Positions 6,606-57,116 of a stretch of DNA of 64,000 nucleotides are shown here, piece by piece. Both the position numbers and the translations under genes were made by a program. The notes beneath the pieces are model-generated. The model saw only the letters and a list, made by a program, of their open reading frames with translations. It searched no databases and was not told the DNA's origin. The stretch comes from Escherichia phage REP2, in sequence record OQ174501.1; one strand, 5' to 3'. Within the stretch, counting starts at the first letter, position 1, and the number at the start of each line of letters is the position of its first letter.

Positions 6606-7565
6606 ATGATTACCGTAAATGAAAAAGAACACATTCTTGAACAGAAATATCGTCCATCTACTATCGATGAATGTATTCTTCCCGCCTTTGATAAAGAAAC
6701 CTTTAAATCTATTACAAGTAAAGGTAAGATTCCACATATTATTCTTCATTCTCCTTCTCCAGGAACAGGTAAAACAACTGTAGCAAAAGCATTGTGTCAT
6801 GATGTAAATGCTGATATGATGTTTGTGAATGGGTCAGATTGTAAAATTGATTTCGTTCGCGGTCCTTTGACTAATTTTGCCAGCGCAGCTTCATTTGATG
6901 GTCGTCAAAAAGTAATCGTTATTGATGAATTTGACCGTTCAGGGCTAGCAGAGTCTCAGCGACATCTTCGTTCCTTTATGGAAGCTTATAGTTCAAACTG
7001 TAGTATTATTATTACTGCTAACAATATTGATGGTATTATTAAACCACTTCAGTCACGCTGCCGAGTTATTACATTCGGTCAACCGACCGATGAAGATAAA
7101 ATTGAAATGATGAAGCAGATGATTCGTCGATTGACTGAAATCTGCAAGCATGAAGGAATTGCTATAGCTGATATGAAAGTTGTAGCAGCTTTGGTTAAAA
7201 AGAATTTTCCTGATTTTCGTAAAACTATTGGCGAGCTCGATAGTTATTCATCTAAAGGTGTTTTGGATGCTGGTATTTTATCACTGGTTACTAACGATCG
7301 TGGTGCTATTGATGATGTTCTTGAGTCTCTCAAAAATAAAGATGTTAAACAGCTCAGAGCTTTAGCACCAAAATATGCAGCTGATTATTCGTGGTTCGTA
7401 GGTAAACTTGCCGAAGAAATCTATACACGCGTAACTCCGCAAAGTATTATTCGTATGTATGAAATTGTTGGTGAAAATAACCAGTATCATGGAATTGCGG
7501 CTAATACTGAATTACATTTAGCATATCTTTTCATTCAATTGGCATGTGAAATGCAGTGGAAGTGA
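6606..7565 (+). CDS. 44: clamp loader large subunit gp44 (AAA+ ATPase)
   Basis: 319 aa from the ATG at 6606 (GAGG SD); Walker [15 protein letters not shown] Walker B, SRC motif. Confidence 0.9.
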
Positions 7566-7566
7566 T

Positions 7567-8130
7567 ATGAGCTTATTTGAAGATGATATTCAATTAAACG
7601 AGCATCAAGTTGCTTGGTATTCAAAAGATTGGACAGCTGTCCAATCCGCTGCTGATTCTTTTAAAGAAAAAGCTGAAAATGAGTTTTTTGAAATAATTGG
7701 AGCTATTAATAATAAAACTAAATGCTCTATTGCTCAAAAAGATTATTCAAAATTCATGGTTGAAAATGCATTATCACAATTTCCAGAGTGCATGCCAGCT
7801 GTATATGCTATGAATTTAATTGGATCAGGCTTAAGTGATGAAGCCCATTTTAATTATCTAATGGCTGCAGTTCCTCGTGGTAAAAGATATGGTAAATGGG
7901 CAAAACTGGTTGAAGATTCTACCGAAGTATTGATTATTAAGTTACTTGCTAAACAGTATCAAGTTAATACAAATGATGCAATTAACTATAAATCAATTCT
8001 TACTAAAAATGGAAAACTACCTTTAGTATTAAAAGAACTTAAAGGATTAGTCACGGATGATTTTTTGAAAGAAGTGACTAAGAACGTAAAAGAACAGAAA
8101 CAACTCAAAAAACTAGCATTGGAATGGTAA
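7567..8130 (+). CDS. 62: clamp loader small subunit gp62
   Basis: 187 aa from the ATG at 7567; overlaps end of gene 44; T4 synteny. Confidence 0.8.
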
Positions 8131-8131
8131 A

Positions 8132-8500
8132 ATGATTGAAATTACTATTAAAAAACCTGAAGATTTTCTGAAAGTAAAAGAAACTTTGACTCGTATGGGA
8201 ATTGCTAATAATAAAGATAAAGTTCTGTATCAGTCCTGTCATATTCTTCAGAAAAAAGGACTATACTATATCGTTCATTTTAAAGAAATGCTTCGTATGG
8301 ATGGCCGTCAAGTTGAAATGACAGAAGAAGATGAAGTTCGTCGTGATTCGATTGCATGGCTGTTAGAAGATTGGGGACTGATTGAAATCGTTCCTGGACA
8401 AAGAACTTTTATGAAAGATTTAACTAATAACTTCCGAGTTATTTCTTTTAAACAAAAACATGAATGGAAACTCGTTCCTAAATATACGATTGGTAATTAA
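8132..8500 (+). CDS. regA: translational repressor RegA
   Basis: 122 aa; follows gene 62 and precedes gene 43 as in T4. Confidence 0.8.
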   Translation: MIEITIKKPEDFLKVKETLTRMGIANNKDKVLYQSCHILQKKGLYYIVHFKEMLRMDGRQVEMTEEDEVRRDSIAWLLEDWGLIEIVPGQRTFMKDLTNNFRVISFKQKHEWKLVPKYTIGN

Positions 8501-16311: not shown

Positions 16312-17739
16312 GTGGTAGAAATTATTCTTTCTCATCTTATATTTGATCAAGCTTATTTTTCAAAAGTTTGGCCATATATGGATTCAGAATATTTTGAAAG
16401 TGGTCCAGCTAAAAATACATTCAAATTAATTAAATCTCATGTTAATGAGTACCATAGCGTTCCATCTATTAATGCGCTAAATGTTGCATTAGAAAATAGT
16501 TCATTTACTGAAACAGAATATTCTGGTGTAAAAACACTTATTTCAAAACTGGCTGATTCTCCAGAAGACCACAGCTGGTTAATAAAAGAAACAGAAAAAT
16601 ATGTTCAGCAAAGGGCGATGTTTAATGCTACGTCTAAAATAATCGAAATTCAAACCAATGCTGAGCTTCCTCCAGAAAAACGAAATAAGAAAATGCCAGA
16701 TGTAGGTGCTATTCCTGACATCATGCGCCAAGCATTATCAATTTCATTTGATAGCTACGTTGGCCATGATTGGATGGATGACTATGAAGCACGTTGGCTA
16801 TCTTATATGAATAAAGCTCGTAAGGTTCCATTTAGACTCAAAATTCTAAATAAAATTACAAAAGGCGGAGCTGAAACAGGAACACTGAACGTTTTAATGG
16901 CTGGCGTTAACGTTGGTAAATCATTAGGACTTTGTTCATTAGCAGCAGATTATTTGCAGCTTGGTCATAACGTTCTTTATATCTCCATGGAAATGGCAGA
17001 AGAAGTCTGTGCTAAACGTATTGATGCTAATATGCTTGATGTTTCTCTTGATGACATTGATGATGGACATATTTCTTACGCTGAGTATAAAGGAAAAATG
17101 GAAAAATGGCGTGAGAAATCTACTCTCGGTCGTTTAATCGTTAAGCAATATCCTACTGGTGGAGCAGACGCTAATACATTTCGATCACTTTTAAATGAAT
17201 TGAAGCTCAAAAAGAATTTTGTTCCAACAATCATTATTGTCGACTATCTAGGTATTTGTAAATCTTGCCGCATCAGAGTTTATTCAGAAAATAGTTACAC
17301 AACTGTTAAAGCTATTGCAGAGGAATTACGTGCTCTGGCTGTTGAAACAGAAACTGTTCTTTGGACTGCAGCACAGGTTGGTAAACAAGCTTGGGACTCT
17401 TCTGATGTTAACATGAGTGATATCGCAGAATCTGCTGGTCTTCCAGCAACAGCTGATTTTATGCTTGCAGTCATTGAAACCGAGGAGCTAGCAGCTGCTG
17501 AACAACAACTCATTAAGCAAATCAAATCACGATATGGTGATAAGAATAAGTGGAATAAGTTTTTGATGGGTGTTCAAAAAGGAAATCAAAAATGGGTAGA
17601 AATTGAACAAGATTCTACTCCAACAGAAGTGAGTGAAGTAGCGGGTTCACAACAGATTCAGGCTGAACAGAATCGCTATCAAAGAAACGAATCAGCTCGA
17701 GCTCAGTTAGATGCTTTGGCAAATGAATTAAAATTTTAG
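16312..17739 (+). CDS. 41: replicative DNA helicase gp41 (DnaB family)
   Basis: 475 aa; Walker A GVNVGKS; GTG start preceded by AAGGAG. Confidence 0.9.
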   Translation: MVEIILSHLIFDQAYFSKVWPYMDSEYFESGPAKNTFKLIKSHVNEYHSVPSINALNVALENSSFTETEYSGVKTLISKLADSPEDHSWLIKETEKYVQQRAMFNATSKIIEIQTNAELPPEKRNKKMPDVGAIPDIMRQALSISFDSYVGHDWMDDYEARWLSYMNKARKVPFRLKILNKITKGGAETGTLNVLMAGVNVGKSLGLCSLAADYLQLGHNVLYISMEMAEEVCAKRIDANMLDVSLDDIDDGHISYAEYKGKMEKWREKSTLGRLIVKQYPTGGADANTFRSLLNELKLKKNFVPTIIIVDYLGICKSCRIRVYSENSYTTVKAIAEELRALAVETETVLWTAAQVGKQAWDSSDVNMSDIAESAGLPATADFMLAVIETEELAAAEQQLIKQIKSRYGDKNKWNKFLMGVQKGNQKWVEIEQDSTPTEVSEVAGSQQIQAEQNRYQRNESARAQLDALANELKF

Positions 17740-17768
17740 TTTACAAGCTGACAAGACTATGGTATAGT
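17739..17768 (+). promoter_or_regulatory. T4-type early promoter embedded in an inverted repeat (PeSL-like)
   Basis: gtttac 17739-17744, tatagt 17763-17768; caagacta/tagtcttg inverted repeat flanks the -10. Confidence 0.5.
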
Positions 17769-17797
17769 AGTCTTGTTGGTTAAATGAGGAGATTGTT

Positions 17798-17980
17798 ATG
17801 GAATTGGTAAAGGTAGTTTTTATGGGGTGGTTTAAGAATGAAAGCATGTTTACTAAAGAAACCACAATGATGAAAGATGACGTTCAATGGGCTACTACTC
17901 AATATGCTGAAGTTAATAAAGCATTAGTTAAAGCTTTCATTGATGACAAGAAAGTATGTGAAGTAGATTGCCGAGGATAA
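17798..17980 (+). CDS. dmd: Dmd-like protein (antitoxin against host RnlA/LsoA, T4 gene 61.5 position)
   Basis: 60 aa ORF immediately downstream of gene 41, same size and position as T4 dmd. Confidence 0.55.
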   Translation: MELVKVVFMGWFKNESMFTKETTMMKDDVQWATTQYAEVNKALVKAFIDDKKVCEVDCRG

Positions 17981-19398: not shown

Positions 19399-20427
19399 AT
19401 GTCATCAATACCTTGGATTGATAATGAGTTTGCATACCGTGCATTAGCTCATTTACCTAAATTCACACAAGTAAATAATAGTTCAACTTTTAAATTGCGG
19501 TTTAGATGCCCTGTTTGTGGAGATTCAAAAACCGACCAAAATAAAGCTCGTGGATGGTATTATGGTGATAATAATGAAGGAAATATTCATTGTTATAACT
19601 GTAACTATCATGCACCAATCGGAATATATTTAAAGGAGTTTGAACCCGATTTATATCGTGAGTATATCTTTGAAATAAGAAAAGAAAAAGGTAAAAGTCG
19701 TCCAGTAGAAAAACCTAAAGAACTTCCTAAACAACCTGAGAAGAAAATAATTAAATCTCTTCCGTCATGTGTTAGATTAGATAAACTGGCGGAAGACCAT
19801 CCAATTATAAAATACGTAAAAGCTCGTTGTATTCCAAAGGATAAATGGAAATATCTTTGGTTTACAACCGAATGGCCTAAATTAGTTAATAGCATAGCAC
19901 CAGGAACATACAAAAAGGAAATTTCTGAGCCTCGTCTTGTTATTCCAATTTATAATGCTAATGGAAAAGCTGAGTCTTTTCAAGGGCGTGCATTAAAGAA
20001 AGATGCTCCTCAAAAATATATCACCATTAAAGCTTATCCTGAGGCAACAAAAATATATGGAGTCGAACGAGTTAAAGATGGTGATGTATATGTTCTAGAA
20101 GGACCTATAGATTCACTTTTTATTGAAAATGGTATAGCTATTACGGGTGGTCAATTAGACCTAGAAGTTGTTCCATTTAAAGATAGACGAGTGTGGGTTT
20201 TAGATAATGAACCTCGTCACCCTGACACTATCAAGCGAATGACTAAATTAGTTGATGCAGGAGAAAGGGTTATGTTTTGGGATAAATCTCCCTGGAAATC
20301 AAAAGATGTCAATGATATGATTAGAAAGGAAGGTGCAACCCCTGAACAAATTATGGAATATATGAAAAATAATATTGCCCAGGGGTTGATGGCTAAAATG
20401 CGGCTATCTAAATATGCTAAGATTTAA
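19399..20427 (+). CDS. 61: DNA primase gp61
   Basis: 342 aa; zinc ribbon CPVCGDS...HCYNCNYH followed by a Toprim-like core. Confidence 0.9.
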   Translation: MSSIPWIDNEFAYRALAHLPKFTQVNNSSTFKLRFRCPVCGDSKTDQNKARGWYYGDNNEGNIHCYNCNYHAPIGIYLKEFEPDLYREYIFEIRKEKGKSRPVEKPKELPKQPEKKIIKSLPSCVRLDKLAEDHPIIKYVKARCIPKDKWKYLWFTTEWPKLVNSIAPGTYKKEISEPRLVIPIYNANGKAESFQGRALKKDAPQKYITIKAYPEATKIYGVERVKDGDVYVLEGPIDSLFIENGIAITGGQLDLEVVPFKDRRVWVLDNEPRHPDTIKRMTKLVDAGERVMFWDKSPWKSKDVNDMIRKEGATPEQIMEYMKNNIAQGLMAKMRLSKYAKI

Positions 20428-20624
20428 ATTAACCCAACTAAAGCAAATGCTAAATCTACAAATGTATCAAGAGTAACTACTGGAATATTAACACCATGCG
20501 CAATTGCAATTGGTGATAAAATAAAGTTCCAGAGTAAAATTCCTACCATAGCAGAAATAGTAAAAGCTATACGTTTCTTATTACCTTTGATGGCATTAAC
20601 AAGTGCCATTAATTTTTGTACCAT
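20424..20624 (-). CDS. hypothetical small membrane protein encoded antisense to the early genes
   Basis: 66 aa, two hydrophobic segments; strong SD AGGAGG 4 nt upstream of the ATG on the minus strand. Confidence 0.5.
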   Translation of the reverse strand: MVQKLMALVNAIKGNKKRIAFTISAMVGILLWNFILSPIAIAHGVNIPVVTLDTFVDLAFALVGLI

Positions 20625-20695
20625 ATGTCCTCCTTATTGCTTTATATATTTATTGTATAATTAATCTACTAACCCATGAATTGAAAGGAAAAATA

Positions 20696-21214
20696 ATGGC
20701 TTACTTTAACGAATGTAGTCAACTGATTGAAGGCGCTGATAAAGCTCAAAATGAATATTGGGATATTCTCGGTGATGAAAAAGACCCGCTACAGGTTATG
20801 CTTGATATGCAGAAATCTTTACAGATTCGTTTAGCTAAAGATAAACCTGAATATAATCGTCATCCTGATGATTTGGCTACTGCCGGTGAAGTTGTTGATT
20901 GGTTGCGTAATCAGAAAGATTATATTGATGATGAATTCCGTGAACTTCTGACTTCTCTTGGTGGTATGAGTAATGGTGAAAAAGACGCATCTGCTGTATG
21001 GAAACCTTGGAAGTCGCAGCATGGTGAACGTCGTGAAACTCTGATTACTGATTTGTCTCCGCAAGACCAACTGGAAATTAAGTTTGAAATGATTGATATT
21101 CTCCATTTCGTTCTGAACATGTTCCAAGGTCTTGGTCTTACAGCAGAAGAAATCTTTAAACTTTATTACCTGAAAAATGCTGAAAATTTCGCACGTCAAG
21201 ACCGAGGTTATTAA
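20696..21214 (+). CDS. 56: dCTP pyrophosphatase gp56 (MazG-like)
   Basis: 172 aa from the ATG at 20696; MazG-like EExxE-type helices; T4 synteny. Confidence 0.8.
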   Translation: MAYFNECSQLIEGADKAQNEYWDILGDEKDPLQVMLDMQKSLQIRLAKDKPEYNRHPDDLATAGEVVDWLRNQKDYIDDEFRELLTSLGGMSNGEKDASAVWKPWKSQHGERRETLITDLSPQDQLEIKFEMIDILHFVLNMFQGLGLTAEEIFKLYYLKNAENFARQDRGY

Positions 21215-21244: not shown

Positions 21245-21252
21245 TATAAATA
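21245..21252 (+). promoter_or_regulatory. late promoter (TATAAATA) for soc
   Basis: exact TATAAATA 31 nt upstream of the soc ATG. Confidence 0.6.
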
Positions 21253-21282: not shown

Positions 21283-21540
21283 ATGGCTAGTACTCGCGGT
21301 TATGTTAATATTAAAACATTTGATCAAACAGTTGATGGTGGTACAATTCAGGGTAAAGAAATTTCTGTAGCTTTCCCTCTTTATTCTGATGTTCACAAAA
21401 TTTCTGGTGCTCATTATCAGACATTCCCTTCTGAAAAAGCAGCATATTCTACAGTATATGAAGAAAATCAGCGTACTGAATGGATCACTGCTAATGAAGG
21501 TCTTTGGACTGTTACACCTACACCAGGTGTAGGTGGTTAA
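21283..21540 (+). CDS. soc: small outer capsid protein Soc
   Basis: 85 aa; MASTRGYVNIKTF...SVAFPLYSDVHKISGAHYQTFPSEKAAYSTVYEENQRTEW matches Soc. Confidence 0.85.
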   Translation: MASTRGYVNIKTFDQTVDGGTIQGKEISVAFPLYSDVHKISGAHYQTFPSEKAAYSTVYEENQRTEWITANEGLWTVTPTPGVGG

Positions 21541-45334: not shown

Positions 45335-45991
45335 TTATTTAGCCCTTCCTAATATTCTGGCCGCCTGAGAACATATTGATTCAAGGCGGTCATTACTTAT
45401 ATGATCATTTCTATACCAGTACATGGTTATTGTTCCAGCATAGATATTATCCAAATTGAAATATGGACAACTGTACATGTAATTTATTTCGGGAGTAGGC
45501 TTTTTAGTTGGTAAAAAAGCAAATTTTGAGTCGGAATAATAATGACGTCCATTTAAATGAACTGCATATTCATCCATAGTTTTATCAACAGGATATCCTC
45601 CAAGTGATTTTTCGCTTATTGTTGAAGGTAATTTTCCTTCGTATGCTATAATATCAACAAAATAGTTTAAGTTTTTAGGGCGGAAAGAATATACCGCACT
45701 AAAGTCTGCCTCAGATGATATATGAACTATCTGGAGTTGTTCCAGGGCGACAGATTCAAAGCGTGCATTTCTTTCCTTTTCAATAATTTCGCTGTATGTT
45801 TCATACTTTGATTGCTTATAGTACTCAAAGAAACTATCTCCCCTATACCAAACAATCGCCATTATAAACAAAAGAATTACGACAGCTACCCGGGAAGCAA
45901 GAACTTTCCCGGTAGCATTATCTTTGAACAAGCGATCTAGAACACCAAATAGAATATCAGAGGGCGAAAATGATATTCTAGGTGCTGCCAT
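45335..45991 (-). CDS. t: holin T
   Basis: 218 aa; single N-terminal TM segment and large periplasmic domain; adjacent to gene 38. Confidence 0.85.
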   Translation of the reverse strand: MAAPRISFSPSDILFGVLDRLFKDNATGKVLASRVAVVILLFIMAIVWYRGDSFFEYYKQSKYETYSEIIEKERNARFESVALEQLQIVHISSEADFSAVYSFRPKNLNYFVDIIAYEGKLPSTISEKSLGGYPVDKTMDEYAVHLNGRHYYSDSKFAFLPTKKPTPEINYMYSCPYFNLDNIYAGTITMYWYRNDHISNDRLESICSQAARILGRAK

Positions 45992-46021
45992 AGACCCTCC
46001 TTTTAAGGGTATTTATTCACA

Positions 46022-56800: not shown

Positions 56801-57116
56801 TATTCGTCCGGTCGATGAGACCGGTCTTTCAGAAAAAGAACTTTCAATTAAGAAAGAAAAGGATGAAATTGCAAAGCTTCTTGACCGTCAAGAAAACGGA
56901 TTTATTATTGAAAAAATGGTAGAAGAGTTTGGAATGAGTTATCTTGAAGCTACGACAGCATTCTTGGAAGAAAACTCTATTCCTGAAACTCAATTTGCTA
57001 AATTTATTCCTTCGGGGATAATTGAAAAAATCCAGTCAGAAGCTATTGACGAAAATCTTTTACGTCCTTCTGTTGTTCGTTGTGAAAAAACTAATACATT
57101 AGATTTTCTACTATGA
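56778..57116 (+). CDS. 33: late transcription co-activator gp33
   Basis: 112 aa from the ATG at 56778; position upstream of gene 59. Confidence 0.7.
   Translation: MTQFSLNDIRPVDETGLSEKELSIKKEKDEIAKLLDRQENGFIIEKMVEEFGMSYLEATTAFLEENSIPETQFAKFIPSGIIEKIQSEAIDENLLRPSVVRCEKTNTLDFLL

Follow-up and report, generated by a model that had tools for sequence, protein, structure and literature searches.

A conserved small gene, antisense between genes 61 and 56 of T4-like phages, with a predicted membrane-protein product

Results

Organization of the interval between genes 61 and 56

The window, by which we mean the whole 64,000-nt stretch of DNA that was analyzed, is a segment of a T4-like (Tequatrovirus) genome and corresponds, in reverse complement, to positions 56855..120854 of Escherichia phage REP3 (OQ174502), from which it differs by 11 mismatches over the 64,000 nt (99.98% identity). 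Its plus strand carries the genes for helicase 41 and DNA primase 61, between which lie homologs of dmd, 61.4, sp, 61.2 and 61.1, and continues through gene 56 to soc. The features considered here are the following:

16312..17739, plus strand: helicase gene 41
19399..20427, plus strand: gene 61 (DNA primase), upstream of the 61–56 gap
20424..20624, minus strand: small ORF of 66 aa, ATG to TAA, from the ORF listing; PHROG 2024 / RB32ORF030w family
20587..20612, plus strand: terminator-like hairpin followed by TTTTT, within the small-ORF codons for residues 5–13
20629..20634, minus strand: Shine-Dalgarno sequence AGGAGG, read directly, 4 nt before the small-ORF ATG (20624..20622)
20637..20661, plus strand: putative MotA-type middle promoter of gene 56, by consensus match only (TTGCTTTA at 20637-20644, TATAAT at 20656-20661)
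20647..20654, minus strand: late-promoter-like AATAAATA, starting 30 nt before the small-ORF ATG; an A(-13) form of the late consensus of T4, TATAAATA
20696..21214, plus strand: gene 56 (dCTPase/dUTPase), from a PHROG 173 match (E 3.4e-46) and the REP3 annotation
21245-21252, plus strand: soc late promoter TATAAATA
21283..21540, plus strand: soc, directly 3' of gene 56, without segF

The gap between the end of gene 61 (20427) and the start of gene 56 (20696) measures 268 nt, against the roughly 270 bp given in a first-pass annotation made from the letters of the window, and it holds a small minus-strand ORF whose stop codon shares 4 nt (TTAA) with that of gene 61 in a tail-to-tail arrangement. 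This 66-aa ORF had been placed by the first-pass annotation exactly to the base, with an AGGAGG noted before it, and the window map bears out its remark that soc directly follows gene 56 without an intervening segF.

The small ORF belongs to a conserved family of antisense genes

The product of the small ORF matches the PHROG 2024 profile with an E-value of 1.5e-31, residues 2-66 aligning with profile positions 1-65 of 65, and the same profile is matched by 11 of 11 diverse relatives; this is the only family assignment that was found for the protein, and its PHROG function category is unknown. In REP3 the gene is annotated as encoding the hypothetical protein WCA46078.1, which, like ACP30950.1 of RB51 and YP_009608376.1 of ST0, is one of the 'RB32ORF030w'/PHROG 2024 hypothetical proteins and represents the same gene as that of the window, with no difference. 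The PHROG 2024 entries of RB51, RB68 and REP3 are 100% identical to the window protein and occupy the same position and orientation beside primase gene 61; the name 'RB32ORF030w' itself is used in RB14 and RB51. The small ORF is thus a genuine phage gene that was already known, being annotated as hypothetical in REP3 and hundreds of its relatives, and literature searches on RB32ORF030, on T4 small proteins and ribosome profiling, and on T4 transcription start sites and unannotated ORFs returned nothing on it.

Searches with tblastn identified the small ORF in 692 phage records, which fall into two tiers: 502 at 90% identity or more, from Tequatrovirus, and 190 at 44-56% identity, from Mosigvirus and Gaprivervirus. 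In most of the matches listed, the ORF adjoins the primase gene. More distant members, with 21-31% identity, come from the few further clusters that a profile search contributed and belong to Dhakavirus JS98, Jiaodavirus JD18, Kanagawavirus CIP9 and Gelderlandvirus Melville, in all of which the gene is antisense between 61 and 56. The same slot is therefore filled in at least seven genera of the Tevenvirinae (Tequatro-, Mosig-, Gapriver-, Dhaka-, Jiaoda-, Kanagawa- and Gelderlandvirus) by proteins that range in identity from 21 to 55%, and the insertions that occur in it, those of dam in T4 and T2 and of a homing endonuclease gene in DK-13, always lie between the small ORF and only one of its neighbors. 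Since the profile search of 1.84 billion representative proteins returned only 8 clusters for the family, the family is a narrow one.

The substitution pattern among 10 orthologs is that of a translated gene under purifying selection, as judged from comparison of their sequences. Nei-Gojobori estimates of dN/dS range from 0.11 to 0.52, with dS saturated between genera; variable columns number 44, 20 and 55 at the first, second and third codon positions, respectively; and there is a single indel in total, of one codon. The frame of the small ORF is moreover the sole frame that is open in 10/10 orthologs, all other frames being interrupted by stops, and the GGAG(G) before the ATG is kept in 8/8 genus-level orthologs.

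A late-promoter-like motif precedes the small ORF

The 50 sites listed for the T4 late promoter TATAAATA include 32 perfect ones and 9 with an A at position -13, which is the commonest deviation among T4 late promoters (Geiduschek & Kassavetis 2010, PMC2988020); the motif upstream of the small ORF is of this latter kind. In 7/8 genera NATAAATA is found at -20..-30 from the ATG, CIP9 having a perfect TATAAATA and Melville only a 6/8 match, and in most genera the first T of the consensus is absent from the motif. Over the 128 kb of the two strands of the window, ATAAATA is strongly avoided, occurring at only 14 sites, which corresponds to a probability of ~0.002 per 15-nt interval, and the full TATAAATA is also depleted, with 5 occurrences found versus ~10 expected. 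The other [TA]ATAAATA sites are located just upstream of late genes, namely 34, 36, soc and t; for t, which encodes the holin (45335..45991, minus strand), the site is the same AATAAATA variant as that of the small ORF. The remaining TATAAATA or ATAAATA sites include 46017..46010 (minus), 21245..21252 (plus), 50475 (minus), 55542 (minus) and 5211 (minus), and the majority directly precede the starts of late genes, namely those of 34, 36, soc, holin t and a homing-endonuclease ORF.

The location of the motif differs between phages. In those of the REP3 type it is embedded in the middle promoter of gene 56, within the spacer, at a position that is non-homologous to that of the motif in T4 and JS98; in T4, T2 and JS98, it belongs to a different leader, GCGA(A)TAAATATTAATTTAA.AGGAGG, which is mutually similar among the three phages. 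The occurrence of a late motif at non-homologous positions argues for selection on the motif itself.

The small ORF is oriented along the strand of most T4 late genes, so that 'antisense' here simply describes the orientation that most of these genes have. Because of this late-gene strand, the strong ribosome-binding site and the late-type motif, late transcription of the small ORF by gp55-RNA polymerase, followed by translation, is most likely, as far as can be read from the sequence. If AATAAATA is the promoter, its change to AATGCATA should abolish the product. A combined transcriptome and proteome study of T4 counted NC_000866 features only (PMC9697503), and the small ORF is not among these.

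Early-strand elements and the possibility of a non-coding function

The putative middle promoter of gene 56 is homologous to the P(M)16.53/oriA promoter in the dam-56 intergenic region of T4, and the annotation of phage SA20RB lists this element as a T4-like middle promoter. It would lie back-to-back with the late promoter of the small ORF, AATAAATA being contained in its spacer on the opposite strand. The arrangement differs in JS98, ST0 and DK-13, whose late motif is found beyond the MotA box, on its opposite side.

The hairpin inside the small ORF, which in SA20RB is annotated on the basis of TransTermHP/WebGeSTer, is a candidate terminator of the gene 61 transcript. It is situated on the early strand, just upstream of the gene 56 middle promoter, and is found in Tequatrovirus only, being conserved in neither Mosigvirus nor Gaprivervirus. 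Downstream of the small ORF, on its own strand, no terminator was detected, the fold being no better than that of shuffled sequences (z = -0.29); as a consequence, a late transcript would be expected to extend into gene 61 in antisense and could have an additional, secondary effect of this kind.

An abutting P56 promoter, an early-strand terminator-like hairpin within the ORF and a late RNA that continues antisense to gene 61 are what one would also expect if the small ORF were untranslated and its DNA had been conserved for regulation of the early strand, as terminator of 61 and middle promoter or origin of 56, or as an antisense RNA to 61. We regard this as very improbable. The hairpin can be ruled out as the cause of conservation, since it is absent outside Tequatrovirus whereas the protein is kept in seven genera; dN/dS is well below 1, third codon positions vary most and the only indel is of one codon, in a frame that stays open at 21-55% identity; and the strong Shine-Dalgarno sequence is kept at the right distance. 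An antisense effect may exist beside coding, yet it offers no explanation for these coding features, which argue for a translated gene.

The small ORF is predicted to encode a membrane protein

An AlphaFold model computed from a 16-sequence alignment (pLDDT 77) consists of three helices, spanning residues 2-13, 16-42 and 52-63, with a loop at 43-51 between the last two. The best 19-residue Kyte-Doolittle window of the protein reaches 2.0. In the phage orthologs the N-terminus is rich in lysine, with a net charge of +1 to +6, and the long helix contains an invariant W32 and P38, as well as near-invariant N33 and A40, before reaching an invariant G44; A40 and G44 together form a small-xxx-small face. 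The loop has the conserved motif G-x-x-(L/I/V)-P-x-x-x-(L/I/M)-(D/E), and the last 13-14 residues are hydrophobic, the window protein ending in ...DLAFALVGLI. Across all genera the C-terminal 21-24 residues have a net charge of 0 to -2 and a mean hydropathy of +1.0 to +2.2, and the segment behind the prolines lacks the length that a standard second span requires. Based on the positive-inside rule and the lysine-rich N-terminus, the model suggests an N-in, single-pass topology in which the C-terminal helix, short and hydrophobic, would sit at the outer leaflet or within it. Conservation, two hydrophobic stretches and the predicted helices thus agree with the view of the first-pass annotation that this is a genuine membrane-protein gene with a strong Shine-Dalgarno sequence.

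No family of known function was found by searches of Pfam, NCBIfam and PADLOC with the protein and 11 diverse relatives, by a sequence-profile search of the PDB or by Foldseek searches of BFVD and the PDB; the only matches were the protein's own orthologs. A family profile revealed no paralog in REP3, where the next-best match has an E-value of 0.26.

Class II holins and pinholins include S21 of phage 21, which is about 70 aa long. The small-ORF product resembles them in its size, its hydrophobic helices and its small-xxx-small motif, and presumably in being expressed late; such a small, predicted membrane-embedded protein with a small-xxx-small helix face and a late-type promoter motif could be a holin, a pinholin or an antiholin-like lysis protein, and orthologs are in fact labeled as such in OE5505 (UniProt 'Holin') and KP1079 ('putative holin'), with one distant family member weakly matching Pfam GTA_holin_3TM (E 0.1). 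These labels have, however, no visible experimental or homology basis; the GTA_holin_3TM match is far under threshold and limited to that single member; and the only BFVD match called 'Holin' is the small ORF's own ortholog. Furthermore, although at least one transmembrane domain is predicted, only one segment is of membrane-spanning length, the ...ALVGLI end is hydrophobic in place of the charged, hydrophilic C-terminus that is typical of holins, and, with no Pfam or NCBIfam match above threshold, there is neither sequence or profile similarity to a holin family nor linkage to an endolysin: no lysis gene is adjacent to the small ORF, the endolysin gene and holin gene t being tens of kb away in REP3. 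The phage also has a T4-type holin T, antiholin/lysis-inhibition proteins and spanins elsewhere. A function as a lysis protein of this type therefore appears quite unlikely for the predicted membrane protein.

Imm and Sp, the superinfection exclusion proteins of T4, provide another comparison, as they are also small T-even membrane proteins from the same early-gene region; unlike imm and sp, which are on the early strand, the small ORF lies on the opposite strand and has a late-type motif.

The small ORF coexists with dam in T4 and T2

In the T4 reference genome (NC_000866) the gene order is 61, a 309-nt unannotated gap, dam, 56, segF and soc, in agreement with the map given in the first-pass annotation, which had dam between 56 and 61 and a segF/69 region separating 56 from soc. 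The T4 copy of the small ORF (17738..17938, plus strand; L001 4739..4939) is contained in the unannotated gap that precedes dam. Like the ORF of the window, the latter has 66 codons, a Shine-Dalgarno sequence and a tail-to-tail overlap with gene 61, and the two proteins differ by only two substitutions, A25T and I39V. What sets them apart is the upstream neighbor, which is dam in T4 and gene 56 in the window, and the late-type motif, which in T4 is GATAAATA and is part of a JS98-like leader that differs from the window's.

The small ORF is missing from the T4 records AF158101, NC_000866 and X01416 (the original one) and is called, with phrog=2024, in the 2020s record OZ209023; in a large protein collection, the exact protein of the T4 reference is found in automated Logan assemblies only, with no NCBI or UniRef accession there. 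T2 (LC348380; L016 1501..1701) and JS98 (NC_010105 15343..15543; L021 1974..2174) also have the ORF, in both cases unannotated.

These comparisons bear on the suggestion that a small gene is found at a site at which a larger gene would be expected, leaving a 61-56 interval that is unusual and reduced. That the T4 region has dam and segF and the window has neither speaks for such a replacement; since T4 and T2 hold both the small ORF and dam, the small gene is no replacement for dam, and we attach practically no probability to this reading. The part of the suggestion that stands is the absence of Dam. No homolog of Dam or SegF was found in the window (the best tblastn E-value for T4 Dam being 1.5), and neither has a homolog in the whole genome of the 99.98%-identical REP3 (best tblastn E-value for T4 Dam 0.33). 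REP3 likewise has no methyltransferase-sized ORF with a DPPY-type motif: its two ORFs of at least 150 aa that contain [DNS]PP[YFW] are other proteins, one of them, at REP3 7565..8494, being annotated as a head-tail adaptor protein and the other being the gp61.2 homolog. The part that does not stand is the role of the small ORF as a stand-in, both because the ORF is shared with T4 and T2 and because the order 61-ORF-56 is common.

In 322/504 records, 80% or more of the contiguous 61-ORF-56 stretch is covered by the match, and dam is absent from ~64% of Tequatrovirus records; a T4-type Dam at 90% identity or more is present in 182 records, versus 502 for the small ORF. The 61-ORF-56 order without dam also extends to five or six other genera, among them Mosig-, Dhaka-, Jiaoda-, Kanagawa- and Gelderlandvirus, and the dam-less intergenic DNA can be aligned with that of JS98, ST0 and DK-13 all the way to gene 56. 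Because the order spans genera and the intergenic DNA aligns across them, the dam-less arrangement looks ancestral at this locus on sequence grounds. The junction sequences of dam are mosaic and by themselves give no direction, be it insertion in T4 or deletion in phages of the REP3 type; it is the cross-genus comparison that favors a dam-less ancestor.

The absence of dam and segF is accordingly the commonest arrangement in this group of phages and has no relation to the small ORF, being ordinary polymorphism of accessory and mobile genes. The dam gene forms an accessory cassette, which T4 and T2 have between gene 56 and the small gene; segF, inserted between soc and 56, encodes a free-standing homing endonuclease (PMC2988022), and some relatives, phage Pu-Krd-SF6 among them, have segF and lack dam.

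Discussion

Taken as a whole, the data are best explained by an ancestral late gene of the 61-56 interval of the Tevenvirinae that encodes a tiny inner-membrane protein, an interpretation that we consider probable. The small ORF would be transcribed late by gp55-RNA polymerase and translated into a protein of ~65 aa, whose lysine-rich N-terminus would reside in the cytoplasm and be followed by one transmembrane helix and then, on the periplasmic side, by a short hydrophobic helix at the C-terminus. Through its small-residue face, the protein may establish helix-helix contacts in the inner membrane during late infection, either between its own copies or with a partner. Our best guess is that its role is a modulatory one, in envelope function or lysis timing or in membrane-associated assembly; it is a guess because there is no homology to a family of known function.

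The gene could also turn out to encode an unstudied late inner-membrane protein of T4 itself that takes part in a classic membrane process, such as the timing of lysis and the control of lysis inhibition with holin T, or the membrane-anchored initiation of proheads. The odds are against this. In that case, its omission from the reference annotation would be the reason why the small gene has escaped T4 genetics and omics.

In itself the finding matters little, as it concerns an ordinary, already annotated gene. It does raise a point of curation: a gene with signs of purifying selection and late-gene signals, whose conservation extends over at least seven genera of the Tevenvirinae, is missing from the reference records of T4 (NC_000866/AF158101), T2 (LC348380) and JS98 (NC_010105), and studies restricted to reference features are blind to it (for example, PMC9697503). 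Once the small ORF is added to these references, existing public data could test its expression at no cost.

The variation around the small ORF is a sign that the 61-56 interval is an insertion hotspot, of the typical kind in which a stable core is surrounded by plastic sequence. Between the small ORF and dam, T2 has a further hypothetical ORF of 181 aa, T2_032 (LC348380 16006..16551; L016 865..1410), which T4 lacks. The -10 region upstream of T4 dam (ATTGTATAATT, L001 4660..4700) and that of the promoter of gene 56 in dam-less phages (window 20650..20665) match, which hints that the dam cassette may have been inserted downstream of an ancestral P56. In Gaprivervirus DK-13, a homing endonuclease gene (MT611523 105359..106108; L004 2872..3621) separates primase gene 61 from the small ORF, and two additional ORFs are located between 56 and soc.
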